Part shown: in pieces, positions 20,101 to 41,300 of the stretch
How positions within the stretch are numbered: position 1 is the first letter of the stretch
How the letters are laid out: each line of letters begins with the position of its first letter
DNA from: Endomicrobiales bacterium
GTDB taxonomy: Bacteria; Elusimicrobiota; Endomicrobiia; Endomicrobiales; JALOBY01
Reading direction: 5' to 3'
Assembly (NCBI GenBank): GCA_963796955.1
Contig: CAWCNJ010000006.1
Coordinates: forward strand, 1 to 64,000
DNA length: 64,000 bases
Position numbers and translations under genes: made by a program
The notes under the pieces: generated by a model
Databases searched by the model: none
What the model saw: only the letters and a program-made list of their open reading frames with translations
Told to the model about the DNA's origin: nothing

Positions 20101-23100
20101 TAGTTCCGGAAAAAGCATTGCTCTTCCTGGACAAATATAACAAGGCTATCGCCGATCCCTCGCAACCCGTGAACCTGCAAACCGCGCCGGTAGAAGCCGT
20201 CTGGCCGGTGCTCAAGGCCATAGTGTTCCTGGACAAACCGCAGGCGCTGCAGCTGGTAGCGCTTATTCGGACCATGTCGGCAAAGGCGCAGCGCCAGCCA
20301 ACGTTGCTTGAGGATACGATTCGCCTGATGGAACACGATATCGCCAACGACTGGGCGGATATGAACGCCAGCCATCTGGACGGCCGCACCATTCTGTATA
20401 ACGCCGCCGAACTTTCATATCCTGTGGGCGGCCTGAGCGCCGTAGGATTGTACCATACCCTGGGTATAAAGATATTGTTAGCGAAAGCAAAAAAGGTGAA
20501 TGTGAACATTGTGGCGGCAGAACCATGGTACCAGATGCAGCGTATCGGCACCGAGCATTCCCCGCTTGATTACCAGGCGATGGGCGCTACCAGCATGGTC
20601 GCCATAGACGATGTATTTGAATTCGATATGCCGTACGAAAATAAGTACAAACAGCCGATAACGGTACATGTAAAGGTGTCCAAAGGCGTGGACAAAGACG
20701 GCAACGTCCGCTACCTTGTGCGCGACGTGAATCCGGACGGCTCTTCGTACTACACTAAATACGTCTATGACTACAATACGGAACACAACCCTGTTTCCGG
20801 CGAGGAATTTAACGGTTTCTGGTGCAAGGCTACGGCCATGATGTACTACGTGTTGGAAAAACAGCGCAAACAGGAACTGGGCGACAAGTGGAAACGCGCG
20901 ATCGTGTGGGCGCAAGACGGCCAGGTATCTCCCATGGTGGCGGTAATTGAAACAATGCAGGACGAAGCTGAATACTGGATCGAAAATGAATTCCGCGGTC
21001 TCGGCGGGCTTACCCCGGAAGATCTGCGCGGGCTTGCGCCCCTTACCGTTGATACCACCCACACCTATCCCAACCGCAACAACATTATTTATGCCGATAG
21101 TTCAAAAGCTGACGGTATAAACCGGGAGGCTTACAATTACGGCTTATGGGCGATCCGCGGGCTGCTGAAAGTGGGCGCTAAGTTCCTTGGTTTTTTCCTC
21201 AGAGAAAACGACAAGATGTTCGATTCTACCAGCGGAGGAGCACGTCCTGCGAACCTGATGACCTATGTGAGCGATAAACACCGTAAGGATTTTGTCCGTA
21301 AGGGTATAGACCCTACCATGCGCAACAATTCCAAGGCCATTACCAACGGCGGCAATAAGGGCATGTGGCGTTTTACGCAGATAATGCGCAAACTGTTCGG
21401 CGACAATGCGGATCTTGACCGCCCGACCCCCGACATGATCAGACAGTCCAAGGTTGAGGCGTGCAGGGAATTGAACGATATGCATATTAAGACCTCCCTG
21501 TGGGAGCCGTCTATTTATCAGATAATGCAGGCGATACCGAATGAATTGAAGCAGAACGGTTATGCCAAGGATAATATTGAGGTGTGTAATAAACTGCGCG
21601 ATATTCTGCAACCTGTCATGCTCCATTATACGCCTTCAGCAGAGCAGATAAGCTCCATATTCGGCATGACCTCATTCAGCAACCCGGCGGAAGTGCGCGT
21701 TGCGATTGAAAAACTGTTCATTGAGCAGCAGTTTGCTGTTGTGGTCGCAGATCCCGACCGCCTGAATTCAGGCTGCGCCCGCCGACTGGTACCGGAAAAA
21801 GCAGGGTTGCAATCGGAAAATGCCGCCGAGGTTATCCGCTGGCGCCTTGCCCACGGCGAAGATGTGTTCCCCTTTCTGAAAGTGCAGGCAGACGATGATC
21901 GCAGTGTGATGATGGCCTATGGGTTCAGTAAGATAACTGAGCAGAATAAATACGATATACCACGCTGGAAGGTGAATATACCCGGCGACTCGCGGCTGCG
22001 CAACATCACCCCGTTGCGTACCCTTGAGCGGGAGGTCCTTGAAGAAAACGCGGAATCTATCAGAACCACTGGAAAGCCAAAGTATACAGGCCGTCTCTGT
22101 GTTGTTCTCGGCTTCAACGGAAAAGAGAAGAATGCACGCTTTGCCGCTTCCAATGTCGGAGAAAAGTTCTCATATGATGAAACAGGAGCGGCCGAGGAAT
22201 CCGAAGAGTCAGACGGCGACAACGCCGCCCTGAAAACCGGCACTTTCGAAGGTGTTATCATGTTCTGCGCCTTGCTGATAAAGAAGGTCGGCAAGCTGTT
22301 CGTCGGGCGTGGTAATGCCATAGCCCCCGAACGCGACGATCCCGAGAGCGCCAGGAAAGTGCATGAGCAGTTCATAGAATTATGGAACGCAGATCCCCGG
22401 CATGAGCAATTCTATAGTTTCAGCGCAAATTCGGTGCGCCTGGCGCGCATACAGGACTATCTGCTTACCAGCGCCGCATATATCCGCACTTTCGACGAAC
22501 TGGCTGCCCAGGATGACATGAATATAGAGAAAGATGCCGCGCTTGTCGCGGCTCTCGGACGCGCTGCCGCCAATGCCGCTTGGGGGGATATCGGCATATT
22601 CGATCAGTTATTGAAGAACGGCCGCAACAATGTAGGCCCCTACACCTTCCGTAAGGGAGGCGGCGTTTGGAAGGCCGGTGAAGCCGGTATAGAAGGATTT
22701 AAGGAACGGAAACTTGAAGTTGAGAACGCAGAGGGTGTGGATGCGCTCAATATTCAATTGGGATACAACGACGGAGATCAGTCATTCTCCCGCAGCCATT
22801 ATGCCGATTATTTTAAGACCCTGTTCGGCGGCATAAAAGATGGCGATACAGATGTAAGCCAGATCATAGAGCAGTGGTTTGACGATCTTGCGCGCTCTCC
22901 CGGTTCTGTATATCAGAAGAACAAACGGTTTAACGCGTTAGTTGGTTCGTTAACAAAAACCTTGCGCGCCGCGCGTGACAAGGCGCGGGCGGATGAAGAA
23001 GCCCGGGCGCAGCAGATCGCGGCTATTAAAGCTTACGCCGAATTGCATGGTTCCATGGTGATCACGGTTGACGGCACCTCTGGGGCGGGTAAAGGCACGG

Positions 23101-26100
23101 CTGCGCAATTGCTGGCCGATAAGCTTGGGTTTATACATCTTGATGCCGGCGCGATCTACCGGATGTTCACGGTGCTTGCAATGCAGGAAAAGATTCCTTT
23201 TAATGACGGCGCGCGCATAGTGGACGAACTTAAGAAGGCCTCGTTTGACGTGATCAGGGCTCCGGATGGAACGGTGGGTATTCGTCTTAACGGACGGGAT
23301 ATATCGTCGGAATTAAGAACACCGCAGGTCGGCTCGAACGTTGCTGCCGTCGCGAAGAACAGGGTCGTCAGCGAGTATGTGTTTGAATTCATGAGAATTT
23401 TGGCTAAGGGTAAGAATATCGTCGCGGACGGGCGCAATATGGGCACGGACACCTTCCCCGCGGCGCCCAAAAGCGATCTGCAGAACCGGCCGGTTAAATT
23501 CTATGTGGATGCTCCCGTCGATGTGCGCGCGCAGCGCAGACACGATGAATTTGTGCGCGCCAACAAACCAAGCAGGCTGGAAGATGTGAAAAACGATATC
23601 GCGGCGCGCGATCAGGCCGACATGTCCAGGGATTTCGCACCGCTGCGCAAAGCTTCCGACGCTCATACGATCGACTCTTCAAATCTCTCACCTGAACAGG
23701 TCGTTTCGCAAATGCTTGAGGTTGCCGCTTCGAAGATCGCCGCAGTGTTCGAAGTTTCGGCGCCGTTCGCTGCGCTCTATCACACGGCATTGTCGCTGAA
23801 GCCAGCGACCATCGTCGCGAAGGCTGTGCGCGAGATCCTCACACAAGAAAGATGGGTAGCTAACCTGCCGCAGATCGCCGATAAGGGTATTGTGCTGCTT
23901 GCTACCACGCCGGAACAATTGAAAATATCGCTGGAGCAGGCGGGCTATTATGCCAACCTCGGCGTGCCCGTAACGCTGATGTCCACCATCGATGCGGGCT
24001 TTGGCGAGACGGAAAAACCCTTGCTGGTAGACGGTAAAGTGACGGTTGGCGGTGACGCGGCTTTGAAAGGTATTACCCTGGAACCTGTGCTTGGTCACAA
24101 CAATGGCAGCAGGCAGTTTACGGTTATCAAGGTCAGCCTTGCTTCAGGCTACGACGCAACCGGCGTTACCGGCGAAAGCCTGGTGGTTGCCGCCTCCAAT
24201 GCCCTGGCCCGTGAAGTAGGCGAAGGCGGTATTTTGCAGGGGCCTCTGGGCGGCGTGAAAATCTGCGCGACCATGATCAACGGCTCGCCTGAATTCGCCG
24301 GTCTAAAAGCAGCGCTCGCCGCGGCCAAAGGCAGTGCGCGGGACGGCCGGGTCGTTGCGGAATGGGAAACAGGCAAAACCGCTCAACAGACGCTTGAAAA
24401 CATACAAGCCAAATATTCCGCTGAAAACAACGCCATGCAGGATAAATTCGTGGAAGATATGCGCGAAGCGAAAGAACCGATGGTCGCGCTTGCCTCGGGG
24501 CGTTTCGATACCGTCAGCGGCCCGCTGGAAGGCACCTATCCCGATGAGATCGAGTTGGCGAAGCCCGTTCGCGGCATCGTCAGCACGCTCTTCTTCGGTG
24601 CGCGCCGCCCGGACAGCGTAGATCCTCTTGACCTGGACCCGGCCGCCGCGGACCTTGGCCGCTTTATTGACGGTCTCTACAATAACGGTGTGCTGGGAAA
24701 AGACGATCATGCCGCCCTTACGAACAGGCTGTTGCCGATACGGCGCAACGGCCAGACCGATACACTGACCATGGCAATGCTTACCCGGATCCGCACAACA
24801 AAGACCGATGTCGCGACAACCCTTGGTGAGATATTACGCAAGAACGGTTATACCGCCGACAAGCTGGATATTACCGACGGGAAGTCTTTGATCAGATCTA
24901 TCAGCCTGTTGGGTATGCAGCGCTCGGCAGCCGCAATGCAGCAGCCGGGCATAGGTATTACCCGCGGCTGGGACATAGGCGTGGTAACAAAAAATGACGC
25001 CGATAAAATAATGCAGGCGCTTGAATGGTCCCAGGCTGTCCGGTTCAACACGGAAGCCCTGAGCACCGCTGATGCCGAGTACCTCTTCAAGCAGATAAAA
25101 GAGAAGAGAACCCTGGCTATCAGAGCAGGCAACAAAGCGCTGAAAGACGCCAAGCTGGTAACCGTAACCGCACCCGCCAATGTACGGGTCGCGACGGAAT
25201 GTTTGATACACTCGCAGCTGAAGGCGGACGGCGCTCTTACGGCTGATCAGGAAGCGGCTGTTAAAGATTACAACGCGGCTGTTGTCGTAGAAACCCAGGA
25301 TCAGGCGAAGCTCGCCCTGAGCGCGAAGGTGTCGGAGATCGTCGCCTCCTTCAACGGCTACAGCGACGACGGCGTAAAGCTGATAGACGCGGCTACCGCC
25401 GGCAACTGGGCTAACATAAAAGACATACTCGGCCTTTTCTCGAAGGGCGGCGCTTTCCAGAGGAACGCGATCATGACGCCTGAAGGCCGTTTCTACGCCG
25501 GAGCCCGTGCCAGCGATGAACTGGCGAAGCCGCTGCTTACGGACAAGACGGCCGCCGATATCGTACTTGAGGCGAACCGTGAGGGTGTCTCGAAACTTGC
25601 GGAAAGTGTGGCGGCCCTTGAGGCGGCTCTCTCCGGCGCCAATAAAACGCCCGGCGATATTACCGCCGCGATGGAAACTATCGAGCAATTGTTGACAGGA
25701 AAGATCGCGATAACCGGCGACGCCCATGCAAAGACCGCGCTGCGGGGACTGCTGACTTCTGTGCGCACCATCCGCGACGACGGCTCTGAAACGCGCCTGC
25801 AAGGGTACCGGGCTTACGGGATGTTGTCCGCGTTTATCGGCAATGCGTTACTGATAAACCTTACTGAGGGAGAAGTGGACTATAACGATATCGCCAATCA
25901 CGTGCCGCTGCGCAACCTTCTGGCACAGGCGTACATGCAGGGTGTCTCAGTTAAGCAAATGCGCGAGAGCCTGAAAAATGGCGTAGAGACGACCGGCGAC
26001 GGCAAAGGGTTACGTTCGCTGCTTACCGGCGAAAAGTCCGTAGAGTTCGTGTCATACGAAATAGAGACCCACTTTCAGCGCCCCGTCATAGTGACCGGCG

Positions 26101-26252
26101 AGAAATTTCAAAATGACTGGCTTGCCCTGGCCGCCAGCGCCATGCTGTTCCCGCTTATCGCGGAATTAAGGAAACCGAACAGTGACAGAATGCTGAAAGA
26201 TTCCGTCGCGCCTGCGACGAAATATATGGTAGAAATGCTCAGCGCCGCATAA
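14142..26252 (+). CDS. Giant multidomain protein 2 (4036 aa)
   Basis: Uninterrupted ORF with AGAGG RBS upstream, N-terminal hydrophobic signal-like segment, and N- and C-terminal regions paralogous to giant 3. Confidence 0.95.
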   Translation: MFNDNGFIKAIARLVLAAFLYSFVVFEPLYGVTTLEKSAAADNTAAEALNTQLGTMVLSARQGRISDGCYVSHKSRVTSLEKGKNGSGSASRLETPNSRLVIFIQDLHCNPEVQKNISEILSFFDTKYGLKKIFLEGAPAGKADLSLFTGITDPAIKEKTLESLLGEGLLSGAVYYGAKNNKENIFGLEQWNLYKENVARMSALLSSKSGSDGSCAELNNLLEQTMALHASSRLKVENYRIKEAEKSKDKYKQFAEIAHRAGISLVQYPNLWRQTEAGKLNAQIKFKRLPKDLQAFLKDIQEKTPYGVYKTIAAKLGDNNRDGEFYLNLQEVAQVYAPELLMSHRNVGSFLEYVRLNYAVNPMCLVEEEGQFKQEVLNSRARTLVDSELVFMQAMTDMLSGFVALGMTPRDFGYFKEHAEQYKLDLMKYYGTEKTSAVLKILENKELYSYYDVNLQRNQVFAKELLGTHSGLRTPDFGLSVVNEYTEVIKHLGEFAEIDAVVTGGFHVETAKALKEQGVSYLTITPNVTRKTTGDLYERFMTAQLNPKDFGISALAGRYTVPEFVAKIGKVAADAQLPIEELEKVLQNSAGSIKDGKVTATRNGDSITVTMQREDEKEKRSVTFTRKADGTYKEDAAEWKKVSASADPNIALTTQSTIEYAKTLPFFGWLLNSSFTPFYVAGFILTSWLVAPWKSEIDDFHEAIYDDWLAVNMMEDHAWPVLGLLPRGIIIPFAYTIAWVPFVGKYITAAMHMAYNIAVSPINIITVSAYRIFAKDKPVGHIALTTDSNFAYSRRAIHRIQTQQGLLIYDGINATVQSPDKLIQHVTQVAKNGNAITVHTQVYKQLRSGDQTGGWTFGPTYTFDVTNGPATVPSTIRKQKVDLAWGVKVSKLGTEGQLMAMLFDKTAYGTWSNPADSPEKQFKDKSIKGAQWWNGLKKAGVDDVLSKWNGLTPQARQVWIGVYEKDILHGLNFEKLHVGADPKSVKGTKLAALIAGETYSRHFPTVNVIANVAEEIAAMINDTDVERKLTDEDILFVIVAMANVFEMGFIINMRAAAEVMTHAFMNLVSPEDQHSTVGNTSGETPDTLATGSNLTDVQPYAKGFSDAEIQRLNEQIYNDVNRNNVRNQVTQRPEGEVANEQFFRNNLTPLMQNLVAQKGDAIRAALLKYMPESPDRERLIVQVLNTLPKPSTFAWFNAIIEGPGRFLIGLRAAPAIDLAWFLYDLDRADTDGINNRLEAYLLHKVIESVTDISHSDNVALVSEVMGWQTDDRGFAPLGSAIHQFINERAATVLEDERSALQAEKQSVKDERNAQALTRAKFAGRKTFDKIVRFIDVTLFALLGWAVFAGPTTTTTPTTPVVPTTAQVSTFMPQSANSNLADLVLSMDSITSGTANPGMGRNNFNLKMFFGVGRPSNSSISGMNGTLKAVGAPDGSMIPVNGELGLSLDIGVLDIVKLNATLGKGPGVTVDLNNGGSPSIGLPITIVGGGASVTAFETEKFRGSFTLNMDMVSGEVLKLLTKDGTVATSVKGTNLGAGIMVSGNPSAFTGVNPYATFKIANESGEGKTEYTSAGFITVPTTGKFSKTVWQVGVGLDGSVLRLAAVYSTDGAVMVLAGLGDGYAWGEGRAIAKAKRIAERAVQDEADRVAEVARLAEQQDLAKQWKEQEAENQKKAAEQTAWQAGIEAARQEAVRQEQLRQQRENQQPPAQQPPAQQSEPAPSNNTIPAAPTTPATPAPAPQIPGAPAGLVPGPIPGSFILPRTESERASLAAAAAPSEEATTASGPIEDTILELHKLHPEWDFMDPAKRLWLIAVYENDAVLTDGFAQRHSGYARNAATMDKGMRLLRDVTQKAAAMSMTPGNVESLSAFIAAEIAKMTSLSAKEVKRLSKNISKMFYMHLEIDDLPALSRAVAHYFYLLNTKRDAWLTLTKDPTALRNIGEGSNEYSEESVSASPLPTWVGTLPRLDTMNVEPVMDELSACFAGDKVVPEKALLFLDKYNKAIADPSQPVNLQTAPVEAVWPVLKAIVFLDKPQALQLVALIRTMSAKAQRQPTLLEDTIRLMEHDIANDWADMNASHLDGRTILYNAAELSYPVGGLSAVGLYHTLGIKILLAKAKKVNVNIVAAEPWYQMQRIGTEHSPLDYQAMGATSMVAIDDVFEFDMPYENKYKQPITVHVKVSKGVDKDGNVRYLVRDVNPDGSSYYTKYVYDYNTEHNPVSGEEFNGFWCKATAMMYYVLEKQRKQELGDKWKRAIVWAQDGQVSPMVAVIETMQDEAEYWIENEFRGLGGLTPEDLRGLAPLTVDTTHTYPNRNNIIYADSSKADGINREAYNYGLWAIRGLLKVGAKFLGFFLRENDKMFDSTSGGARPANLMTYVSDKHRKDFVRKGIDPTMRNNSKAITNGGNKGMWRFTQIMRKLFGDNADLDRPTPDMIRQSKVEACRELNDMHIKTSLWEPSIYQIMQAIPNELKQNGYAKDNIEVCNKLRDILQPVMLHYTPSAEQISSIFGMTSFSNPAEVRVAIEKLFIEQQFAVVVADPDRLNSGCARRLVPEKAGLQSENAAEVIRWRLAHGEDVFPFLKVQADDDRSVMMAYGFSKITEQNKYDIPRWKVNIPGDSRLRNITPLRTLEREVLEENAESIRTTGKPKYTGRLCVVLGFNGKEKNARFAASNVGEKFSYDETGAAEESEESDGDNAALKTGTFEGVIMFCALLIKKVGKLFVGRGNAIAPERDDPESARKVHEQFIELWNADPRHEQFYSFSANSVRLARIQDYLLTSAAYIRTFDELAAQDDMNIEKDAALVAALGRAAANAAWGDIGIFDQLLKNGRNNVGPYTFRKGGGVWKAGEAGIEGFKERKLEVENAEGVDALNIQLGYNDGDQSFSRSHYADYFKTLFGGIKDGDTDVSQIIEQWFDDLARSPGSVYQKNKRFNALVGSLTKTLRAARDKARADEEARAQQIAAIKAYAELHGSMVITVDGTSGAGKGTAAQLLADKLGFIHLDAGAIYRMFTVLAMQEKIPFNDGARIVDELKKASFDVIRAPDGTVGIRLNGRDISSELRTPQVGSNVAAVAKNRVVSEYVFEFMRILAKGKNIVADGRNMGTDTFPAAPKSDLQNRPVKFYVDAPVDVRAQRRHDEFVRANKPSRLEDVKNDIAARDQADMSRDFAPLRKASDAHTIDSSNLSPEQVVSQMLEVAASKIAAVFEVSAPFAALYHTALSLKPATIVAKAVREILTQERWVANLPQIADKGIVLLATTPEQLKISLEQAGYYANLGVPVTLMSTIDAGFGETEKPLLVDGKVTVGGDAALKGITLEPVLGHNNGSRQFTVIKVSLASGYDATGVTGESLVVAASNALAREVGEGGILQGPLGGVKICATMINGSPEFAGLKAALAAAKGSARDGRVVAEWETGKTAQQTLENIQAKYSAENNAMQDKFVEDMREAKEPMVALASGRFDTVSGPLEGTYPDEIELAKPVRGIVSTLFFGARRPDSVDPLDLDPAAADLGRFIDGLYNNGVLGKDDHAALTNRLLPIRRNGQTDTLTMAMLTRIRTTKTDVATTLGEILRKNGYTADKLDITDGKSLIRSISLLGMQRSAAAMQQPGIGITRGWDIGVVTKNDADKIMQALEWSQAVRFNTEALSTADAEYLFKQIKEKRTLAIRAGNKALKDAKLVTVTAPANVRVATECLIHSQLKADGALTADQEAAVKDYNAAVVVETQDQAKLALSAKVSEIVASFNGYSDDGVKLIDAATAGNWANIKDILGLFSKGGAFQRNAIMTPEGRFYAGARASDELAKPLLTDKTAADIVLEANREGVSKLAESVAALEAALSGANKTPGDITAAMETIEQLLTGKIAITGDAHAKTALRGLLTSVRTIRDDGSETRLQGYRAYGMLSAFIGNALLINLTEGEVDYNDIANHVPLRNLLAQAYMQGVSVKQMRESLKNGVETTGDGKGLRSLLTGEKSVEFVSYEIETHFQRPVIVTGEKFQNDWLALAASAMLFPLIAELRKPNSDRMLKDSVAPATKYMVEMLSAA
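14355..14440. repeat. In-frame inverted heptamer array (4x AGTCTCG-like, 30-nt spacer, 4x CGAGACT-like)
   Basis: AGTCACA AGTCTCG AGTTACG AGTCTCG ... CGAGACT CGAGACT CCCAACT CGAGACT. Confidence 0.85.
15547..15577. repeat. In-frame tandem heptamer array ACTYCGG x4
   Basis: ACTCCGG ACTTCGG ACTCCGG ACTTCGG ACT. Confidence 0.85.
20380..22495 (+). other. Divergent GT-B alpha-glucan synthase/phosphorylase-like (GT5/GT35) domain within giant 2
   Basis: ILYNAAEL..GGL N-terminal loop, EPWY, IVWAQDGQ, TTHT, YVS, AITNG, ARRLVPEKA, all in the order seen in glycogen synthases/phosphorylases. Confidence 0.6.
23055..23720 (+). other. cmk: Cytidylate kinase domain within giant 2
   Basis: ITVDGTSGAGKGT P-loop, LDAGAIYR, ADGRNMGT, RAQRR, RDQADMSRDFAPLRKASDA..IDSS. 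Confidence 0.92.
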
Positions 26253-26380: not shown

Positions 26381-29300
26381 ATGTTTAATAATAATAGTTT
26401 CATCAGATTAATAGCACGTGTGGTGCTGGCCGCGTTCGTTTATTCGTTCGTGGCCTTCGAGCCGTTATATGGCATCGCCACAATGGATGCGTCGGCGGCT
26501 ACCGTGCGGGCCGCCGTAAATGAACAACTGGACACGCTGGTATTGTCCGCCCGCATGGGACATATATCAGATGGCTGCTACGTCAGCCCGGAGTCCGGAG
26601 CCCGGAGTCCGGAGAGGACGACGGGCGGCAATTCGCAGTTACTCCGGTCTTCGGTCTCCGGACTCCGGACTAAAAATGACCGGCTGATCATTTTTATTCA
26701 AGACCTGCATTGCAACGCTGAAGTTCAAAAGAACATTAACGACATCCTTGCCTTTTTTGATACAAAGTACGGCCTTCAAAAAATATTTGTCGAAGGCGCC
26801 CCCGCCGGCAAAACCGACCTCTCGTTATTTACCGGTATCACCGACCCCGCCATTAAAGAAAAAACCCTGGAATCGCTGCTCGGCGAAGGCCTGTTGAGCG
26901 GCGCCGCTTATTACGGCGCAAAGAACAACAAAGAAAACCTCTATGGCCTTGAGCAGTGGGACTTGTACAAAGAGAACGCCGCTCGTATGTCCTCTCTATT
27001 GTCCGGTAAGGCCGCTTCGTCCATGGTGTATTCCCGGCTTACTGCAATGCTGGAAGAAACAAAAGGCCTGCGCTGTTCAACGACGTTTAAAATTGCTGAA
27101 CACAAGATCAAAAAAGATGAAAAGAGCGCAGACAAGTACGCGCTGCTCGCAAAGCTGGCCGATAAAAACAACATATCGCTGCTGCAGTACCCTAACCTAA
27201 AGCGCCAAATTGCGGCGAGCGGGCTGAGCCGCCACATAAAATTTAAGAAGCTTCCTGCCGATCTTCAGACGTTCCTTAAAGCCATGCAGGCAAAGCTTCC
27301 TTACGGCGTCTACAAAACATTAGCTGAAAAGCTGAGTGACAACGCACGCGACGGCGAGTTCTATTTAAATCTGCGGCAAGCGGCATCCGCCTATGCGCCG
27401 GAGCTGCTCGCAGGGGCGGCTCGGGGATCATCCCTGCCTAACGTCGAAAATTTTCTCGAGTACGTACGACTAAATTATTCAGTGAATCCGCACTGCCTGG
27501 TGAACGAAGAGAACCAGTTCAAACAGGAACTCCTTGAAAGCAGCGCCCAAACGCTCATAGACCGCAATGTGTTATTTATGCAGTCTATGACGGAGAAATT
27601 CAAAGGCTTTGTAAACCTGGGAATGACACCTGCCGACTACACCTTTTTCAAAGCCCACGTCGAAGAATACACCGTAACCCTGCTGAAGTATTACGGCGAA
27701 CAAAAGACCGCCGCTGCCCGTGCTTTGCTGGAAAACAAAGAGCTGTATGCCTACTATGATGTAAATTTACAGCGCAACGACGTATTCGCAAAAGAATTAT
27801 TGTCCGTCCCGTCCGTAAAGTCTGTTTCGTCCGTAAAGATAATTAACGAATACACCGAAGTAATAAAACATCTCAGCGAGTTCACCGAAATAGATGCCGT
27901 TGTGACCGGCGGCTTCCACACAGAGACCGCTAAAGCCCTGAGTGAACATGGCATTTCCTGCATAACCATAACCCCCAGCGTAACAAGACAAACCACCGGC
28001 GACCTGTATGAACGGTTCATGGCCGGCGCATTATCACCACAGGATCTCGGGATCAGCGCCCTTGCCGGCCGGATAACCGTCCCGGATTTCGTGGCAGGCC
28101 TTGGCAGAGCGGCAATTGAGCAGCCCGGTATTACGTTAACCGCTTTTATAGAGCTTTTACAAAAAGCAGCCGACACGTTCCCCGGGCGCGTACGGGTAAG
28201 CCATGACGGAAACAACGTTACCGTGACCATGTTGACGGACAATAATGTAAGGCAGTCCGTTACATTTACGTACAAAGCTGACGGCAAATTTACCACTAAT
28301 GCGGCTGAGTGGGCAAAGTCCGCCGCAACGCCCGGCGCGTTCTCCCTTATGAAGCAGTCGACAGAGGATTACGCTCTGGAAAACCCGTTCCTGCTGTGGC
28401 TCAGCCAGCGCTTTTGGGGCGCCGGTTTTGCCGCCGTCTATGTGTACGCCTCGCTGCGATACGCGCCTCTGCTGGAAGCGGTTGAATTTTTACACGCCTT
28501 GATGGATCCGCAAGCCGGCAGGCGGTTCCTTGAGGAACACAAGGGAAGTAACTGGTTCCGCATTAAGTCTTTTCTGGCCCTGTCGTTCATTCTCAGCCCT
28601 GTCTTTGATGCCTATACCGTTACCAGGTCCGCGCTGGGTATCGACGGAAAGAAAGCCCACCTGGACAGCGCTTCCCTTGACCCGACAACGGTTCTCGCCG
28701 CCGCCGTGATCATTACCATTCTGGTGCCCGTCCATTTCGCCTATAATTTTTTAGTTGCCTTCCCTAACTTTTTCCTGAAATGGTTCACCGGTAAAGGTAT
28801 CGCGTTCACAACCGATAACGGCGGCGTCGCGGCAAAAGAAAACGGGGCGCTGCCTGCGGTTCTCTCCGGGCGGTTGTCCGGCAATGATCTGGCATCGGCC
28901 GGGGCTTCCCTTGCCGCTCTGAACGCTGCCACACGGCAAAAGCTGTTAAAGCGTTTCGGTTACATAGGCCCCAAAGATGTGCACGGTGTGCGCCGGTGGC
29001 TGAAAGATACCGCCTGGCTTGCGGCCCGCGAAAATATCCAGGCTATAGACACCGACAAAATGCTTTCCGATCTGGGGAACTCGGGCTTTGTGACGGCCGA
29101 ACAGGCGAGGCAGGTAGGCGTTCTTGCCGAAAACGCAGCGATGCGGGCGGATATCGAAAAGCAGCTAAAGGCCGGCAAAGCCGTGGTCGCTTACGGTGTC
29201 GAAATACGTTTTGACCCTGTATCGCAACAGTTCATGTTCCGGTCCGATAGATCCCTGCTGCGTCAGTTCAGCCAGACACCGTTGCAGGCGCGCGCCCCGC

Positions 29301-32300
29301 CGAAAGTTGTGGTGAATGTCCTGGTATGGAACGGCTTTGAAGAAACGAAACAGCTTTTGCGATCTCTCGCTAAGGTAAATACGCCTAATGTGGAAGTAGT
29401 GCTGCTGGACAACGGTTCCACGGACAAACAGAAGATCCGTGAGTTCATGGACAAAGAATTCTCCCTTGACCCTCCCTTTACCCTTACCCTGTTGCAAAGC
29501 CCCGTAAACCTTGGATTCGACGAAGGCCATAACGTGCTGGTAGACTACGCCCTGGACACCGCCAGGGCCGACAACGTGATAATGCTCAACAGCGACATCA
29601 TCGTGGAAGAAAATTTTTATGACGGAATGCTGCATCCTTTTGAAGACGGATTTTCCATTGACGGTAAAACCGCCAACCCCGGCGTTGTTGGGCCGCTGGT
29701 GCTTAATGAAGCCGCCAGGAAAAAACATGAAAAAGGCGAACCCATACGGCCGGAAGAAATAATAACGGCAGGCTTCGATTACGACGGCGCCGGACGGCCC
29801 GCGACGGTTCAAAGCAGCTGGAGCGCGCGCAGGACTGACGAAGTTTGGGGCATGGCAATGGCTTTCCCGCAACTGGCGCTGCGCGAAGCGGGTGCCTGGG
29901 ACCCCCGGTTTTTCGCTTACGGCGAGGAAGCAGACCTTGCCCAAAGGCTGCGCGAAGCAAACTATGATATTATCGTTACAAAAGATACGAAGGTCTGGCA
30001 CGGAGAAAGATCCAGGGAAGGCTCATTGACAAGCCTTTTAGCTATAGAGAACGGAATTAAGAACAGCCTTCTCAACTACCGTAAGCATCCCGCACCGGAA
30101 GAATTTGTGTCCCGGAACGCGGAAGCCTTCGGATATTTTTTAAAGGAAGGGGCTAAAGGTTTTGTAAAGGCTGAAGGCTTAAGAAAAAAGTTGTCATATT
30201 TCGCGGCTTCGGTGCGCGGCCTTGCAGCCGGCATAGCCGGCAAATTCAGCAACGCCCAGGCGGATGAAATTTCAGTTATCCAGAATGCTGTTGCTCCGGC
30301 GCGCGTTCCAGCTGCGGCTGATGCCGCCGCTTTAGCAGGCAATGGGGTCTTAACACTGCCGAAGGCGTTCGATAAAGAAGGCGTGGAGGTTCAGAAGGGC
30401 ACCGTTCAAGAACTGATCGAAGAGCAAGGCAGCTGGGCGACGCGGGAGAACTGGTGGGACTCCCTGCCTGCTTTTACTCAGGCGCGCATGATAGCTATGC
30501 ACGAACGGGGTGAGGTTTTCAGATATGACGATAAAGGCAAAATATTTGTGGCACGCCATTACCCTGCGACGGATTTGGACCGGACGGAACTGCAAAAGGG
30601 TGTGGACGCCATGGCGCAGGCAATGGAAGTGGCTTCAGTCTGGGCTGGCTGCGGTGCCTCGGAGACCGTGCTGCTGGAAGTTATCGCCAGACATATCGCT
30701 GAGGCGGCCAGCAAAAAATCATCCCGGGAGGCCGTAAAAGAATATGCTGCGAGCCTGCCACGGAGAGACGCGAACGGTACGGTAATCCCGCATGAAAAAT
30801 ATCTTGAGCTGGTCAATACATACGCCGCCGAACAAAAGGAAAAATACCGCCTTCTTGAGACGGACAAGGTGCTGACCGTTGATGAAATAGCGCAGCTTAT
30901 CCATGACGTCAGGCTGGATTTCCGGATTAAACTCCGCATGCCGTATCCCGGCTGGGCGGAGATCGCTAAAGTTTCCATGCAGGCCGCATGGGACCTTACG
31001 CACGGCGTTAATGCACAGCTAACCCTGAAGAAGACACTCAAAAAAAATGCGACAGCCGGAAACAAGGGACTTACCTATTTTCTTGCCGATAAAAGAGCGC
31101 AGCAAAAACTTTTCGATGAGCTGTTGATACAGCTGGGCGAGGCTGAAAAGACGCTTGATGTGGAGCGGGCGTTGGCTATACACGACCGGCTTCTGGCTAT
31201 CCCTCCGCAAGTTCTTACCCTTGAACAGACTGAATTGATGGTTAAAAAGATAATACCTGAGGGGTTCCGCCTTATACGGACGGGGTTGATCAGCGAAAGT
31301 TCCAGGGCTGAAGCCGCCGGGGCCGGTTCGGCAGCACCGCAGGGAACCATTGGTCTTACTAAAAAGATCATAGTGCCCAATGTTTCAAACGAGAAAAAAA
31401 TCCCTACAAAAGAAAGGGCAGCGTTGTTTTCGCAGCAGCGGATACAGGCGAACATTAAGCTATTGCAGCGGCAATACCGGGCTGCTCTCCGCAAACGAAA
31501 TAAAGTTGAAGCTGCGATCGTGCTGCAGAAGATACTCGATGCGGGCGATAAAGAAGCGGTTGCAGGCCTGCCGTCCATAGCGGTTGATTCCGATGAAGCA
31601 TGGGATGCCCTGGCGCTGGCTGAGCTGAAAGCAAAAGGTCTGATAAAAGAAGCCGGCCTGAAAACGTACTCTGTTGTTAAGAACTGGCCCACGGGTACCG
31701 CCTTCGAACCGTCCGCGGTCTTAGCGTCGAGCCTTGTTAAGGAAAAAGTTGTTATCAGCAACGACGACGCTTTGCCGACGGAAGAACGCCTGAGCCTGGA
31801 TATGGGTAAGCGGGAAGCCTTGTATTTTAGTCTTTTGATCTATATGAAGTATATGGGTATACGCCGAACAGATGGCAGCGATAATGACCGGGGATTCGGC
31901 AATTATCTTAACCGGCTTGCGAAAGCGGCGTCTGAAGAGCAGAAAATCAACCAGCCTTCCGAAGAAGCGTACAAAACTGCGCAGGTAAAATTTTTCATAA
32001 AGCACGGGGTTTTGGTTAAAACCTCCAGGATAGGCAACGATTACCGCTTGGTCACCAATTGGTACCCTCAGTTAGATGAAAGAGCAAGAAAGCTCAGCCC
32101 CTATCTGCTCGACACAGATGAAGCCGTTAAACAGGCCGGGTATACCTATTACGGATCAAAGGATCCTGAGTCTGCTAATCAGCAGCTCACCTTTCCCGAG
32201 ACCGAAGAACAGGTGCAGAAAGACAGGGGCATTTCACCGCAAGACTGGAAAAATAAAACGCCTCCCCTGGAACGCAACCGCCTGGTCAGCGTTCACGAAC

Positions 32301-35300
32301 TTCCGGATTTCGCCGCGGTGGTAACAGAAGAAGATAAGATCGCCCTGGTTAACCGCCACAAGCGCCCTGAAGTCGCGGGCAAGCTTTTAAGGGGCGTGAA
32401 CCTGGTGATGCATTGCGCCGACGCGGCCGTACAGATCGCCGAACCCTTATCTCTGAACGACGCGATAATCGCGATCTCTATGAACGTGGTAGAGAACATA
32501 CGCGATTCCAAACCAAAGTGGGGCGTCAGATTATCGCGGCATATGCTGCAAGACGCCCTGTGGAAAACCATCCGCGAAAACCCCGAACGCACCTTCACCC
32601 CGCGGGAACTCGGTATACTAGCCGCCCACATCGCCTGGAACATGACCCACCCTGATGCGAAGCTGACGCTGCAAGGGGAAAACCCTGGTCCCGACAGCCC
32701 GCGGACTATACAGGCGATCGAGGCTTTACGGGAGCAGTACCTTACCGCTTACAATAACGAGTACTTTATCGAAGCCGAATTCCTTATGGTGAAAATACTT
32801 GAGAAAATACAGGCTCTGAAAGACCGCGAAACCTATCTGCGCGGCCTGGTGCCATTGCCCTCCGTGGAGGCGGAAGTTTCAACTACCAAGGGCTGGGGCG
32901 AGGCTGCAGTCAAAGAGTTTACTGCGAAGGGTATCCTGGTCCCTACCGGGAATGATGAGTACTCCGTTGTCGTGGATTGGCCGAAGGGCGAGGTAGTTTT
33001 AAAAGGACAGGGTAAAACCCAGGCGCTTCACCGCGCGGCGGTAGCATACACACATGAGATGACGCGGCTTGGTCTCTGCGGCCTGGGTGAAGATGGCTAT
33101 CTTAAGGTGCCCAAAGGTCTTAAGGAATTTCTGGAATGGCTGCAGGCGGTGCAGGCCGACGGGAAAACAGGCGGATCGCGCGGCGGCCCGGCGAACACTC
33201 AGTTGAATTTGCCGAGGGTAGAGGATAAGACTACCGGCGAAATAATACAGGTGGGCACTGAGCAGGAGCTGATAGATAAGCTGGGTCGGGAAACGGTTTT
33301 TGCCGCTGATGACCGTGAGATACTGCGTATGGGGGCCGTGCATGAACATGAGTCGTCTTACGAAGAAGATTTTCTTGACCGCCATTATGTAACAGACCCG
33401 AAAATACGAGCTCTGTTAAAGAACGGCATATCCCTGATGAACCGTTCCGAGATGGCAGCCCGGGATATAGTTAATTTCAACCCGCTATTTGCAATCGATT
33501 ATGAGCATATATCAAAACTTGCTATACATTTGGCTAAGTTGATAAACAAAGATGTTCCAACCAATGAGATCAAGGTCTCTGTTGATGATCTGTACCACGC
33601 AATGAAAACAACGTTTTTTGAGGACCCCTGGTTCAACCCGGACGGCAGCCAGGCAGATATATTTGCCGCCCTTGCAAGGATCGGCACCCATATCGGCTTC
33701 AACCTGCAAAACAGGCTGAATGGCCGCGCCCATGTGAAGTTGACTCTGCCGAAGACTGACAAGGTTGCCGAGGCTGCGAACGCCCTTGAAGACGCCTTCG
33801 TGCCTCTGGCGGACGTGCTGGCTATTGATAGTAATGTAGACGCGCACCCTGCCGATTTTTCTCTCCTCGTTGGTAATCCGGATATGCAGTCGTATATTGT
33901 CTTCGCGCAAAAGTGGCTGGAGCGGGCAAAGAAGGGCCACCGTTCCCGCATCTTGATCTCGGGCGGGCGCGGCAGCGGTACGTTGCCGCTTATCGCGAGT
34001 GCACGCCGGTATTTGCCGCCTAAAATTCTTGCCAAAGTCGAACAAATGCTTACTGCCGCAGAAACTGACGAAGGCGTCAAAGAAGCCGATATCACGTATC
34101 AAGTTCTCGTTGCAATGGGACTACCAGAAGAAAAAGAGTTCATGCGGCTAGAGCGGGAATCTCTTACTACCGGTGAGGTCTTAAAAAATAGCAAAAACAT
34201 TCTTGTTGATTGGGCGGCAGAATCAAAAATTAGTGACCCATCAATAGGCATCGTGTGCACCGGTGCCAGAGAGGCCCGCGCCTGGGCAACCGCCCATGCC
34301 GAATGGGCGGACCTGATAAATTCAAGGGGCTGGCGCATTCTTGCCGACCCTTCAAAAACAGTAACAAAAGATTCTTTGCACCAGCTTACTCCCCAGGAGT
34401 TGGCAATGGTCTGTAAAGACATCGTCGGCATCCCCGAAGCCGCCGCAAAACAATTGACCTTGAATATAACCAGCGAAGTCGATGGCCTGAACCCCGCGAA
34501 CAACGATAACCTTGAAAAAATAAGGACGCTCGCTGACGGCGGCAGAGATAACTGGAAACGCGTTTTTGAAAAAACGCAGTCCGTGCGCACCGAAGCTGCC
34601 CCATTGCTCGCCACCGCCCGCCAGGCCCTGAACACTTTAATGACCGCCCTGGGAGATAGAGTAACCTACGCACAAGACCCCAACAATAAAACCACCTGCA
34701 CGATAACCATAACTGATGAGAACGCGGGATCGCAATTGACTATCCCTGAAGCCGCCGGCAGGCCTGGCACCATTGGGGAGATAAAGGCTGAGGAAGTTGA
34801 AAGCCGGAAAGAAGAGCAGGGATTCGACGTGGAAAAATGGTGGACAGGGCTTGGTGAGAACGAGCAAAAGCGGCTTATCGGCGAGCATGAGAAAGCCTAT
34901 TTTGACTGGGTTCATGCGCAGAAAGGGAATGAGGATGACTATAAGATCGCCAGAGAAGCGCTAGTGGATCTGCACAATCCCACGGAAAAAGCTCGCCCGG
35001 TTTTGCGCGAAGGGATAGATTTTGTAACAGACTCGATGGACGAGGTTAAGCGGGTAACGGTAAACATCCTGAAATTTGATATCGATACCGTCGCCCTGAA
35101 TATCTATCGAAGGCTTCAGGCGACCAACCCAGATCCGAAAGCGAAACTGGAATTGAAAGAAATCGCCGATCTGATGAGAAAGAGCTACGCCGAAGCAGCA
35201 AAGAAGGGCATCCAGCTTTCAATAAAAGACCTTGCCAATATCGCCGCCCACGCCGCCTGGAACCTGACCCACTTTGATGCGCAGTTAACGTTTGGGCCGT

Positions 35301-38300
35301 CAATGTCTCCTACGGTAGAAGTCAAATTGCCGGTTTTAGGCGATATGTTCGTGCCGCCGGGTGAGTTACAACCTGTCACAATAGAGGCTGTGGGCGAAAC
35401 CACCGTGAACGGCGACCGCGTGGTGCGCAACCTGCGCTATAACGATGATTGGCATATGGTCGTTTTCAAATTCAAGAGCGGTAAATTTGTGCCGGAAGCT
35501 ATCCTTGAAGTTCCCGATAACGCCGGCAGGTATTCTCTTAACGGCACCAGGCTTGCCATGCAGGTGCCTTACCTGGAAAAGTGGAAGATAGGTATTTTTA
35601 ATGCGGTGAATGGCCGTTATGTGCAGGAGGCGGAACTCCCTGAAATAGGTATGAGCTTTATCACGCCGGACGGCTCAAGCGCCAAGATACAAAATTCCGA
35701 TGAGATCATTCTGAGCGGTGACCGCCTTGCCTGCAGGCTGTTGTATAACGGCAAATGGCATACGGTCGTATTTGAACAGGATGTGCCGGGCATCTGGACC
35801 GCGACAGCGGAACTGCGTGACGAAGGCGCCCCCGCGACAGACATCTATCCTCAGGCGGAGGCAGTTGAACTGCTGGCCTTCAACGGCGATCTTATGATAC
35901 GCAAGGTTACCGGCAAGATCGATTCCAAGCGGATGGTCCAATACATCGTATCCCGGCGCGATCCGAAAGGCGGGTGGCACGACGTTTCACTGCTCCCGGG
36001 CCCGAGAGCCGGCCTTAAGCTGGGTGGCGAGCTGAAGACAGTAGACTCAATAACAACAGATTTTGTGCCGATGGACGGCAACCGTTTCGCCGCGACCGTG
36101 CGCTACGATGATAGTTTTCATACGGTGGTTTTTGAGTTCGATTCGCACGGCCGCCATAGAGCGATCGCTGCCTTCCCTGACTTCGGCGCGCAAGCCGTTG
36201 TTTACGGCCGCGAATTGCCTGTGCCCGTCATGATAGAAGGTATTGCCGGCATGTTCTTCAGCGGCGACAACCTGGTACGGAGTATGAAGTATAAGAACCG
36301 CTACCACATGGCCTACAACATGCTTCCTGCGCCGGTCGAAGCCCCTTCAGCGGCGGCCAATCCCTCGTACAGGGTATTACTTAATAGCCTTGTCGCCATT
36401 TTCGGTCTGGGTTTATTAAATTCCGCCTGCCAGTTGGCCGGGCACCATACTGCGGTCATAGCTAGTCCTGTCATGCTAGTAATAATAATTTTGGTCCTGG
36501 AAGAGCTCAAGCATTCCAGACACAGAAGAGAAGCAGACAGGTTGGCGAATGAAACAATGGATGACGTTGCCAGAAGGATAAATACAAAACCCGGATTTGC
36601 GGAAGCGCCCGGCGAAGGCAATGGCAGCATAGAAGTTATCAATGGTAAGAAGAAAGTCGCCCCGACGCCGGAAGAGTTAAGCGCTATTGTTGACAAACTC
36701 TCAGGCGCCAAAAACAAAATACTCTTTAAAGGTATCGGCAACAAAGATGGATCAAAATTGCCTTCGCTCCGCCTGGACGGCACCGTGGACGCGATAATAC
36801 GGCAGCAGGGCGAACGGATCTGGAATTCGTTGTCGGATGGGGATGAAAGCACGGTCTGGGCTCACATGGATAGTTTGCATCGCCTCGCCAAAATAAAAGA
36901 AGCACGCGCGGGCCGCCAGGTGCAAGTCAGCGCCGATGACGCAAAAATAGCTTTGGGCAGGGGCTTTTGGAAACGCCTGGATTCCGATCCCTGGGAACAG
37001 GAGAGGCTGGTCGCCGTTCATGAGAACCCCGTGGTGCTGAGTCCAAAATTTGTCAGCTGGCATAAGGAAACGAACCCGGGTTACGAAGCGGAGCTTTATA
37101 AAGGCTGGGGAAGAATTAAAGAGATCGCGCAATTTGCCGAACGGTTCGCCGAGGCCGATTTTGAGGACGCCATTGCTGAGATCGCCGCCGAAATAGCCCA
37201 AAAAGTACTGCCGGAAGAATACCGGGCCGACCTCGAAAAAAGCTTTGTAAATAATATCATCCGGATAATTACTACAACAAAAGGAGAGGGAAAAATAACC
37301 GCCCTCCCCGCCCTGGCTACCATGGCCGCCCACGCCGCCCAAAACCGCGCCTGGCAACTAACCGGCCGCCCCGACCTGAGGCTGACGCTGGGTGAAAATG
37401 ATCAATATAATAGCAATCCAGAAGCCAAAGGTAACGCTGTTGGATCAGATACCGCAGAATCTCCGGTGACTGATGTTAATCATTTAAATACATCCCCTAC
37501 TTCCCGTGTCACTGTCGAGCTTTTCGATACCGGGTTGGATCAGCAGGAATTCTCACAGTTCTTTAATGAGGATCCTGCCGTAGCTACTATGTTTAAAACA
37601 CAATTTAATCTGGGCAGAGAAGATGTGGCGACGGTGAATGTACGCTCATATTCCACGGTCGGCCAGCAACGAGAGGTTTTCCTGGTAACGCTGGCCCCCA
37701 AGAAAGAGCCGGAGCGCCGCTATCAATTCATCATGAAGAGGTCGCGCCTGCCATACGCGGGCAATCAGTTCCTGATAGCGCATGAAACGCTTACGAAAGT
37801 CGTTAACCGCAAATTAGGAAACGACTTTGTGCACCTATTCGATGTGGGCGGTCATATAGTTACCACCGGTCCATTACAGCAGGGTATCGTATTTACAAAT
37901 TGCAAGGAAGACCGCAAGGCACAGGCCGCGGTGGTAAGGGAATCTGTCTCCATCTGGCACCAGCTCGGCGGATATTTCATCTACGATATTCATCATCATC
38001 AGTACCTGGTAGATTATGATCAAAACCATGATAACCCGCAGGCACATCTGGTGGACAAGGGCCATTTCAGGTTGCAGGAAGGCGTGGAGCTAAATTTCCA
38101 GAATATGGGCGGCGAGCTTGAGCCCCGCGCAGGTGACAAAGACCTGTCGGTACTGGGCGGCTGGCTGCAGCCGGTTTCAGAATACAACTTGCTTTTCAGT
38201 TTGCGGGACGGCTTGAATGCCACACCGCCAACAAAGCAGAAAACGAGCGCGTACGTCGATCCCGATATGGAAATGATGGCATTGTACCAACCGTTCGTCT

Positions 38301-41300
38301 TTAACGATCAGGCGCTGATACAGGGGATCGTGGAAGCATTGGGGAACGAAAAAGCTGTCGATTTCTTTAAGGCTGTATTAAAAGAAAATGACGTACGCCC
38401 CTCGCGCAACAAAACAGTTCAAGAACTTATGGGTGTCGTCGCACAAAAATACCCTGAGCTGTTCAAGAAGTTGAAGAAACCGGAGGTGTCCTCGATTAAT
38501 GCCAACAGCGAGGAGATGAGTGCGAGTCCTTCTGAAGGTTTGCCTAATACCGGCACAGTTTATCGCCTGTTGGAGGGCAAAGAACATAAGGAAATAGTGA
38601 ACGAACTGTCCAAAAACACTTTCTTTCACCGTGCGTACAATGTCCTTATTGGTGTCCGTAGCGATCTGGATGATCTGGGTAGAGATATGGCGGATGAAGA
38701 TACGGTATACATTGCTAAAAAATTCGAAATGATCTTTGCAAACTACAAAGATCCGGATTTCGTTGAAAAAAACAGCGAGGAACTGAGCAAATACCTTGGC
38801 CAGGTGCAGGGTACACTTAGAAAGGAAATGGGGATGAAAGACGCCTACGAAAAGGATCCAAGGGTTTTGGTGAACCTGTTGGCTCCGCTTTGCATGCATG
38901 AAACTCCGGTCATTGACCATGGTGATGTTGGTTTTATAGTGGCGCTCTCTGAGCGGTTTAACTTTATGCCAGACCAAGTGGCAGAGCAGGCTTCTCTGTT
39001 TGAAAGCAGGAAAGAAAATTCGTTTGCAAAATGTGTTCTTGCCCTCTTTGCGATCGCCCAGGCGCAAGCCGGCATGCGCGAGCCTGGCTCGGCGCGCAAG
39101 TTGATCGGTACTGAGCTCGGCGCCACAGCCATCCAGGCGCTGGATGCGAACCCCGCATTGCTGGCGGCGGAAGCTGTATCTCCGGTTAAAGCTGCCGAGA
39201 ATAGCCTGCCACTGGTGCTTAATGTGGTGAAGACTACAGCGCTGGCGGTGCAGAATGAAATTGATGTGCGTAATCCTGCGGCGCAGATACTGGGGCCGCT
39301 GGCGCAACAGGGGATGGTGTTGTTGGCGACGAAGGATACGATCGAAAAAATGCGGGGGCTTGCGGAGAAGCTGGCGGCTCTGGGTGTTCATGTTACGCTT
39401 ATTACCACGGCGGAAGCGGGCGCTGGTATGGCGCGGGCTGGCTGGCAGGCGGGGGCGGCGCAGCCGTTGTTTGCCGGCGGGCGGTTGACGGCGGGGGTGA
39501 ATACGATATATAAGGGAATTAAATTTTCGCGCACTGAGTACCACAAAGATGGCTCTGCGCCACTGGCGATAATGACGGTTGCCTCGCTGGACCAAAGGCC
39601 GTTGGTATTTGAGGGCGAGGGTGAAGATAGCGACAAAGCCCTGGCTGAAAGAGCGGCTGCTGATGCCGAACTGCTTACGCTTGCAGCCAAAGCGGTTGCC
39701 GACGAAACCGTTGAGGGTGGTGTGCTGGAACGTCCGTTCGGCAATAGAAAGATGTGGGGCCTGGTAGCCGATGGAACGCCTGCTCTTGAAAGTTCTATTG
39801 ATGCCGTTAGTCATTCACTAATGGCTAACTATCAGATAGATAATTGGCGTGATGGCGATGAAGTAAAGAGACTTCTTGAACAGATGGTCCTTGGCTTCAA
39901 ATCTCAAAAGAAGCTTCTAGAGGAATTTCCTCTTGTTAGCTATGAACGACAATCCCGCCAGGTGTTTATGAGTTCGTCCGTTCGGGTTTGCACGGCAAGT
40001 TTGCCCGGCAAGAACCGCACCGGGCGTAATGCGGATAAAGTTGAGTTCGCCAGATGGGCCGCAGGCAAAGGCGCGAATATGCTGTTGTGCAACGACCGCC
40101 TGCCGGGTAGCGAAGACCCGTTCTCCGTAGACGTATTAACCGTTGATCTTGATCGTTTGGTAGACCGTCTGTTTAATGAAGGTGTAATAAGCCGTGATAA
40201 ACGCAGCGATCTGCTGCAAGACCTTAACCCGCTTAGCACTGATGTGACGGACCGGATAAACCTGGCCGACCAAAAGATACTGCGCAAGTGCATGAACACC
40301 GTTGCAGGCGAATTGGCTGTTCTCTGTCGTGAGAAGGGTATAAAGGTGGGAGCTGCCGTGCAGGCAGACGGAGAAAAATTGATCCTGGCGCTCAGCCGCC
40401 AGCAAACACGACAGGCGGCAGCCGCGATGCTGACACCTCATATCGAACTTTCCGGCGTTATATATGGCCAGGATCTCGGCGTTATCGCTAAAGGGCACGT
40501 GCCGGAGCTGATAGAACTGCTTAAAGAAGTTCCTGCCGTAAGCTTTAATTCAAGCGCCTTGAGCTCTGAAGAAGCAGCGGAATTGTTTTCCGCAATCGCC
40601 GATGCCAGGGCCATCGCTATCCGGGCAGGCGACCGCGGCCTGAAAGAAAAAATTATCATTACCGAAACCTCTCCCCAGAATGCTCTGATCGCCGCCCGCT
40701 TCGGCATACGGGCGCACGTTAATGCAGCTAAGGCAGGCGGCGCCGACAACCTTATCTCACAGGCCAATGCCGCCATAATAGTTGATAACGAAGATGATGC
40801 CAGGATGGTCGTTAAAAAAGGTTTCTCGCAGTTGGTAGCAGCCTTCAAAGGTTTTAACGATGATGACGGCAGCCTTAACCGCCTGTCTGACGCGACCAAT
40901 AAAAATGAGCAGGGTTTGCTGGCCATCCTGAAGGCGGCAATGCCGGGATCCCACAGAGAAATTGTGACGCCTGAAGGTAGGTTTAACGCCGGTATAAACG
41001 AAGGTAATGCATATGGAAACCATATGTTCGGTTACAAGGAAGGCGCTGCCTTGTGCCTTGGCCTGCCGGGTTTTGCAGAGGCAATAAAACATCTTAAGGG
41101 TGTTCTTGCCAACGCTAATTCAACCAGGGAAGACGTTGATAAAGCGCTTGATGCGCTTGAAACCATTATGGCCAGCGCTCTAACAGACGAGGAATCGGAC
41201 AACAAGAGCGATAAGCGCCGGATGCTGAGCAGATTATACGCAGGCATCAAGGCAAGCCGCGCAGTTGCCGCCAACGATGATCATCGCCTGCTTGGTTTCC

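Follow-up and report, generated by a model that had tools for sequence, protein, structure and literature searches.

The window analysed here, the first 64 kb (64,000 nucleotides) of contig C6 (CAWCNJ010000006.1) of an Endomicrobiales bacterium, encodes three giant proteins, G1, G2 and G3, in which one sequence pattern occurs ten times. We show that the repeats represent an all-helical domain, about 150-230 residues long and not annotated before, which is referred to here as the EHHN module, and that this domain is conserved, folds from helices and exists in two related forms. The hydrophobic form stands directly behind a conserved head domain, and the soluble form recurs along the body of the protein between stretches that include enzyme domains. 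The leading functional idea, to which we give a probability of about 0.35, is that the module is hydrolase-like, may work in the manner of the CPBP/Rce1 glutamic endopeptidases, and may process or punctuate the giant protein that contains it.

There is almost no explanation for the giant multi-enzyme proteins of uncultured bacteria, and a module at their junctions offers a concrete, testable way into how they are assembled and perhaps into how they mature. No published description of the module was found among the papers listed for Elusimicrobia giant proteins or for soluble CPBP/Rce1 proteins, and one preprint searched by term mentions neither CPBP nor polyprotein nor self-cleavage. What this analysis adds is a soluble nine-helix junction module, its link to the hydrophobic form behind the head, the L-T bracket at its borders, and a controlled negative result for membership of the CPBP family.

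Conservation and fold of the soluble module

An alignment of the copies had been suggested in a first-pass annotation of this DNA. The eight soluble copies (five in G3, two in G2 and one in G1) align collinearly over their entire length, with 16-28% identity to the first copy aligned and with Glu, His and Thr invariant. In pairwise BLAST comparisons the best E value is 1.3e-10 (copies c and e of G3) and many pairs are not significant alone; this spread, from 1e-10 to no significance, indicates that the family is old or fast-evolving. A hidden Markov model (HMM) of the eight window copies found a ninth, on which it had not been trained, among the 8043 open reading frames (ORFs) of the genome. 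This copy lies in an ORF of 2609 amino acids (aa) on contig C9 (E 2e-5).

Conservation was counted over 30 non-redundant soluble copies, in an alignment fitted to the soluble-module model (A2). The Glu and the His of F...H (motif 2) are present in all 30, the His of motif 3 in 28 and its Asn in 24; this nearly invariant set supports the E/H/H/N pattern of the first-pass annotation. Phe or Leu occupies position -4 of the motif-2 His in 30/30 copies, and the Leu of the C-terminal linker is kept in 26/30. Losses in motif 3 are seen in copies b of G3 and c of G2, in the G1 copy and in protein P0003. The module is recognised by one Glu, written as (A/Y)AP..E or VHE, by a His ending an F/L...H helix, and by a last helix that carries an H...N pair. 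This pair, as LANIAAHAAWNLTH, is part of the strongest signature, LANIAAHAAWN(L/I/M)TH.

The 30 soluble copies split into two subfamilies (support 94/97). Type A consists of all eight window copies and three others, and reads W..L...R...(H/Y/A)E. Type B has 19 members, including the C9 copy, and reads (Y/F)AP..E. The R....HE of the window copies was also considered as an HEPN-like R-x4-H motif and rejected, since relatives do not conserve the His before the Glu and have Y, A, M, Q, L or AP..E there; no HEPN fold is among the structural matches listed.

Modelling of copy e of G3 (aa 2782-2974) with AlphaFold2, from a 15-sequence alignment, gave a confident nine-helix domain (predicted local distance difference test score, pLDDT, 87; predicted template modelling score, pTM, 0.85). 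The best structural neighbours of this model are generic helical bundles, and the hemerythrin-like fold, a comparison put forward in the first-pass annotation, does not appear among the fold matches listed. The soluble copies are hydrophilic, with grand average of hydropathy (GRAVY) values of -0.59 to 0.0 and 21-32% charged residues.

Positions and motifs of the ten copies

All ten copies lie on the + strand. Their positions agree with those first proposed, the borders differing by 12 nucleotides or less, and the motifs quoted for them are present in the translations of all ten intervals. In G3 the first copy (28340..28825, aa 654-815) is the hydrophobic variant and reads SLMKQST.., YAPLLE, FLEEH, VHFAYN and IAFTTD. 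Soluble copy b (30338..31036, aa 1320-1552) has a degenerate motif 3 (MQAAWD) and an insertion of ~45 aa, and is bracketed by LTLP and LTLK. Copy c (32174..32680, aa 1932-2100) reads VHE, LVNRH and AAHIAWNMTH between LTFP and LTLQ, and copy d (33191..33757, aa 2271-2459) reads VHE, FLDRH and THIGFN between LNLP and LTLP. The modelled copy e (34724..35302) has Glu2837, His2865, His2957 and Asn2961, with LTIP and LTFG at its ends. Copy f (36764..37399, aa 3462-3673) begins with LRLDGTVDAII, has a long insert before W..L, reads AAHAAQN in motif 3 and ends in LTLG.

In G2 the first copy (16089..16511, aa 650-790) is again hydrophobic (IALTTQST, VAPWKSE, MMEDH, MHMAYN, IALTTD). It is followed by soluble copy b (16917..17381, aa 926-1080), which reads VYE, FEKLH and THAFMN and ends in HSTVG with no L-T, and by soluble copy c (19488..19937, aa 1783-1932), which reads VYE, FAQRH and AHYFYLL, has lost the Asn and ends in LTLT. 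The single soluble copy of G1 (8476..9150, aa 2826-3050 of the open frame) reads TAE, LVAEH and AHFVQII, also with loss of the Asn, between LTFP and LTLP. The two copies reported as degenerate, QAAWD and HYFYL, are as described.

Distribution of the module

A profile search of 1.84 billion representatives returned ten proteins, eight of them credible: G2 and G3, four other giants (2825-7833 aa) with two to four copies each, and two short fragments. The other two matches, P0008 and P0010, appear to be low-complexity false matches. Among genomes of the same order the module was found in 8/104, always in open frames of 1076-12656 aa, and in a phylum-wide sample it was found in 8/301 genomes, none of them outside that order. 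The module is therefore a very rare domain confined to one clade.

A search for homologous proteins with the soluble profile, among proteins of 434-2000 aa, found none. The best score in the ESM Atlas was 0.82, with recognition under the useful level, and gave no lead. In a PDB sequence search the module profile matched only designed helical-repeat proteins (E 1.4e-4 to 2e-3), which we read as compositional matches and set aside; nothing natural was found below E 0.1.

Hydrophobic copies behind the head

The first copies directly follow the conserved head in G3 and G2 and, at aa 646-794, in the C9 giant, and the three have a common order of motifs: (S/A)LTT.(S/G)T, AP..E, (F/M)...H, H..YN and A(L/F)TT(D/G). 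The first copies of G2 and G3 had been described as hydrophobic and as carrying AP..E, and both points hold. Motif 2 of the first copies is FLEEH in G3 and MMEDH in G2, rather than the EFLH or DFHE that stands beside AP..E.

The G3 first copy has a GRAVY of +0.36, with one clear hydrophobic helix, the last (Kyte-Doolittle peak 2.16), and two weaker ones. Other first-copy helices peak at 1.0-1.5; G2 and C9 have only moderate peaks, and the C9 copy, with a top peak of 1.02, is largely non-hydrophobic. Judged by such profiles, the depth at which first copies may sit in a membrane is uncertain. A scan of related giants for hydrophobic H...N helices found only the G3 first copy, and the AlphaFold model of a first copy is only moderate (pLDDT 66).

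A fourth module of the first-copy type was found on contig C5 (4238-4642, - strand), in an open frame of 1061 aa, and weaker ones occur in relatives. The C5 module is largely non-hydrophobic, and the Ala-Pro before its Glu is replaced (LSWQWE). When the G3 first copy was searched as a single sequence, paralogues and one weak match were all that appeared, in 2/104 genomes; with the first-copy type, 10/104 genomes match at E<=0.01. In a ten-sequence first-copy alignment every sequence has the Glu and both the His and the Asn of motif 3, and nine have the motif-2 His.

Comparison of alignments relates the two forms, as the first-pass annotation had assumed in counting them together. With hhalign, the first-copy alignment (A5) matched the soluble alignment (A2) with a probability of 67% (E 5e-5) over the half from AP..E to F...H, against 0.3% for a reversed control and at most 0.1% for 20 column shuffles. 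In a three-sequence version of the first-copy alignment, all four motifs were collinear with the soluble form over 137 columns (probability 17%, E 0.0014). The first-copy HMM cross-matched soluble type B modules in P0004, P0009 and P0006. The HMM of the eight soluble window copies reached no first copy at E<=10, and the wider HMM of 30 soluble copies gave them marginal scores of 6 bits or less. The link became clear only in the profile-profile comparison and with the first-copy HMM, by which the first copies of G2 and G3 are the same module in a hydrophobic variant.

Linkers at the module borders

At the start of each module, x-L-T-x-P precedes a (G/S)T..E helix cap. Type A modules end in x-L-T-(L/F)-(G/P) and type B modules in (R/W)-L-(S/T). 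G1-G3 contain 11 matches to the pattern L[TN][LFI][PG], compared with a mean of 2.6 +/- 1.6 and a maximum of 9 in 1000 shuffles, which is about a fourfold enrichment, and 9/11 occurrences stand at module borders. Both L-T linkers of G3 copy e are low-confidence coil in the AlphaFold2 model, as expected of exposed linkers.

Possible function of the module

CPBP proteases are glutamic intramembrane endopeptidases with four catalytic residues, EExxxR lying in the fourth transmembrane helix (TM4) and HxxxN in TM7, according to PMC11980579. For comparison we used ten genuine CPBP proteins of Elusimicrobiota (alignment A3), from 7/61 genomes, which read AP..EE..(F/W)R, then F...H followed by Pro, then H...N in mid-helix. 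The modules read AP..E, F...H followed by Pro within four residues, and H...N, in the same order, with motif 2 (FxxxH) and motif 3 (HxxxN) of CPBP both present; their fold is likewise all-helical and includes a hydrophobic variant. Unlike CPBP proteins, most module copies are soluble, are repeated inside one giant rather than standing alone, and are bracketed by L-T linkers.

Given this likeness, the Glu, His, His and Asn of the module would form one polar site working like that of the CPBP/Rce1 glutamic endopeptidases, which could be hydrolytic or metal-binding. Its most likely substrates would be the conserved flexible linkers at the module borders, and the modules would divide the giant multi-enzyme protein into units, by cutting it or at least by punctuating it. 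A hydrolytic site would mean that the Glu/His/His/Asn chemistry of CAAX-type membrane proteases can work in a water-soluble fold, and would define a bacterial polyprotein strategy. With a non-hydrolytic site, the module would remain a new domain family with a confident fold, useful for marking off cargo units. The main interest is that the idea of a bacterial polyprotein becomes directly testable.

A number of results weigh against the hydrolase-like, CPBP-like reading. Of EExxxR, soluble and first copies conserve a single Glu (30/30 and 10/10, respectively) and neither the second Glu nor the Arg. Searches with PF02517, the Pfam model of CPBP/Rce1, gave no match to any of the ten modules at E<=10 or to the genome as a whole at E<=0.01, and the control of the genome search was found in 11/14 genomes. 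In hhalign comparisons with the CPBP alignment, the soluble alignment reached 0.3% and the first-copy alignment 0.6%, the level of the reversed control (0.3%), and no CPBP protein is among the structural matches of the first-copy model. The coupling between site and linker is also loose: four window copies that have lost the His or Asn still keep L-T-L ends, the intact copy b of G2 has no L-T, and the ends of type B, the second subfamily, are looser, with only (R/W)L(S/T). Site and linker are therefore not tightly coupled. Lastly, the CPBP-fold protein SpdC itself acts non-catalytically, as far as bioRxiv 10.1101/2020.05.21.109470 describes it.

Because the coupling is loose, a non-catalytic spacer or docking domain is about as likely as a hydrolase. 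In such a domain the Glu/His/His set, a common metal-binding triad, may hold a structural metal, and the L-T segments would serve as structural caps or strands, not as cleavage sites. A single protein contains as many as six copies, with unrelated cargo between them, which fits a spacer well, as do the persistence of copies with the Asn or His lost and the generic helical bundles that are the closest structural neighbours. CPBP-fold proteins can, moreover, be scaffolds, as described for SpdC (bioRxiv 10.1101/2020.05.21.109470) and CflP. A spacer accounts less well for four polar residues, a Trp and a Thr-His that stay near-invariant in copies otherwise ~25% identical, a pattern more typical of an active site, and for linkers that are predicted to be disordered rather than packed.

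Relationship to CPBP proteases

Apart from a shared mode of action, the modules might be true CPBP/Rce1 descendants that have turned soluble, which would be compatible with the hydrolase-like reading. We consider such descent unlikely. Its attractions are that the four residues come in the same order, with similar local surroundings, and that a hydrophobic form related to the soluble one exists. In a structural comparison SpdC (LyrA; 6U0O) ranked 5 of 48,161 chains against the soluble model, with a Z score within the noise for helical models, and Rce1 (MmRce1; 4CAD) was not among the matches listed. The matched SpdC range (121-221) encloses the conserved E135 and H210, numbered here from plasmid names in bioRxiv 10.1101/2020.05.21.109470, and the matched range of the module model (43-185) encloses E56 to N180. 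Extrapolated from the range ends, rather than from a residue-level alignment, E56 of the model falls near SpdC 134 and H176 near 212.

Against descent stand the same missing PF02517 match, the hhalign values of 0.3-0.6% at reversed-control level, the incomplete EExxxR and the first-copy model without a CPBP match, and the spacing of the motifs differs as well, with ~90 residues between motifs 2 and 3 in the modules and ~35 in the aligned CPBP proteins (~60 extra). An HMM of the ten Elusimicrobiota CPBP proteins found no module at E<=1 in the ORFs of the genome or in related giants, its only matches (E>=0.27) lying outside the modules, and Foldseek searches of the PDB gave nothing at E<=0.001 for the soluble or the first-copy model. 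Neither the GRAVY of the soluble copies nor the Kyte-Doolittle peaks of the first copies place the four residues in a polytopic transmembrane core, where the catalytic residues of CPBP proteins lie. The first-pass annotation had itself named a lack of profile similarity to CPBP as speaking against its proposal, and with both PF02517 and hhalign such similarity is absent. As the formal tests failed or gave no clear outcome, EExxxR is incomplete, the motif spacing is long and most copies are soluble, the module is not filed under CPBP. Membership of that family is not shown, and the idea that the module works like CPBP is kept as the leading one for its function.

The hydrolase-like reading has a bolder extension, in which the giants would be self-processing polyproteins and a soluble peptidase at each junction, CPBP-descended or convergent, would cut its own L-T borders and free the enzyme cargo. 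We regard this as doubtful. MARTX toxins, with their cysteine protease domain, and viral polyproteins are also very long and contain several unrelated enzyme domains, with flexible linkers that carry a short Leu-containing motif, and they are cut by one dedicated protease domain of known fold. The giants resemble them in having enzyme domains parted by flexible Leu-motif linkers; they differ in that a helical module recurs at every junction and that cutting is only proposed. If self-processing were true, the intramembrane glutamic proteases would gain in this module their first soluble relative, and the mode of protein maturation would be one not described for bacteria.

It is improbable that the module is instead an enzyme or cofactor domain acting on some other target, such as a lipid, a nucleotide-sugar intermediate or a redox cofactor, and is simply a repeated type of cargo. 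Its conserved polar site and neighbouring cargo that includes a glycosyltransferase-like domain and a CMP kinase would suit such a role, but this would leave unexplained the conserved L-T bracket and the fixed copy directly behind the head, and no fold or family match to such an enzyme was found. That short motifs merely recur by chance in long helix-rich proteins, a view to which the many insignificant BLAST pairs might point, is already refuted by the full-length collinear alignment, the untrained copy found by HMM, the homologues in other genomes, the confident AlphaFold model and the failure of shuffled and reversed controls.

The giant genes and their cargo

The genome (2.1 Mb in 11 contigs, 81% complete) is rich in giant genes, its 25 longest stop-to-stop frames ranging from 1828 to 8846 aa. 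Four ORFs on the + strand occupy the first 41.7 kb of the window. G1 (1..11502) is open at its 5' end, at the contig start, with 3833 aa seen in the ORF list. It is followed by M (11988..13988, 666 aa), which lies between G1 and G2 and is homologous to the C-terminal tail of G3 and G2 but stands alone. G2 (14142..26252, 4036 aa) consists of a head, three module copies, a (d)CMP kinase and a tail, and G3 (26381..41734, 5117 aa) of a conserved head, six module copies, cargo stretches and a conserved tail.

In BLAST comparisons the G3 head (aa 1-640) is 61% identical to that of G2, 56% to that of the C9 giant and 26% to those of P0009 and P0004 (E 3e-55 and 2e-53). The shared N-terminal head domain sits behind a signal-like hydrophobic N-terminus, which places these proteins in a head-bearing giant family of Elusimicrobiota; BLAST also shows the tail and a small companion gene to be common to the window giants and the head-bearing giants of that phylum. 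The ~640-aa heads of G2 (14142-16050), G3 (26381-28300) and the C9 giant are alike at 56-61% and the bodies behind them are wholly different.

The G3 tail is homologous by BLAST to G2, M and P0003, and residues 4-666 of M match G3 aa 4482-5117 with 29% identity (E 2.5e-41). The same tail was not found in the seen part of G1. As G1 has no tail there and adjoins M, a lone tail homologue, the pair resembles a split form of the fused architecture. Set beside the fused tails of G2 and G3, this circumstantially suggests that body and tail may work as separate chains.

The module was described at first as separating cargo domains, and it does separate stretches that include enzyme domains, namely a glycosyltransferase-2-like stretch in G3 (aa 982-1091, E 9e-5, just below the cut-off) and a (d)CMP kinase in G2 (Cytidylate kinase of Pfam, E 1.2e-49; TIGR00017, E 1.4e-51). 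Pfam and NCBIfam scans of G1-G3 recognised almost nothing beyond these two. PADLOC gave no match for eight pieces of the giants, and PDB sequence searches with three cargo stretches gave none either.

Two other parts of the bodies have a distinct make-up. G3 aa ~3011-3320 (35411-36350) contains four beta-strand-like repeats of roughly 60-120 aa each, with the signature G(D/N)(R/N)....(L/V/M)(R/L/K)Y...(H/W)..V(V)F(K/E)F, which directly precede a pair of hydrophobic helices (aa 3332-3376). G2 aa ~1330-1770 (18100-19450) has one hydrophobic helix and then a long low-complexity linker that runs up to module c, in the order Thr/Pro-rich, Gly/Ser-rich, charged coiled-coil-like (AERAVQDEADRVAE...), and a QQPPAQQPPAQQ / Pro-Ala-Thr tract.

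Elsewhere in the window, a ResB-like ORF of 167 aa (50751-51257, - strand) adjoins a CcsA-like cytochrome c assembly gene (49964-50758, - strand). Of the 486 positions of the Pfam model this ORF covers only 151-266, and it may be a truncated or split gene.

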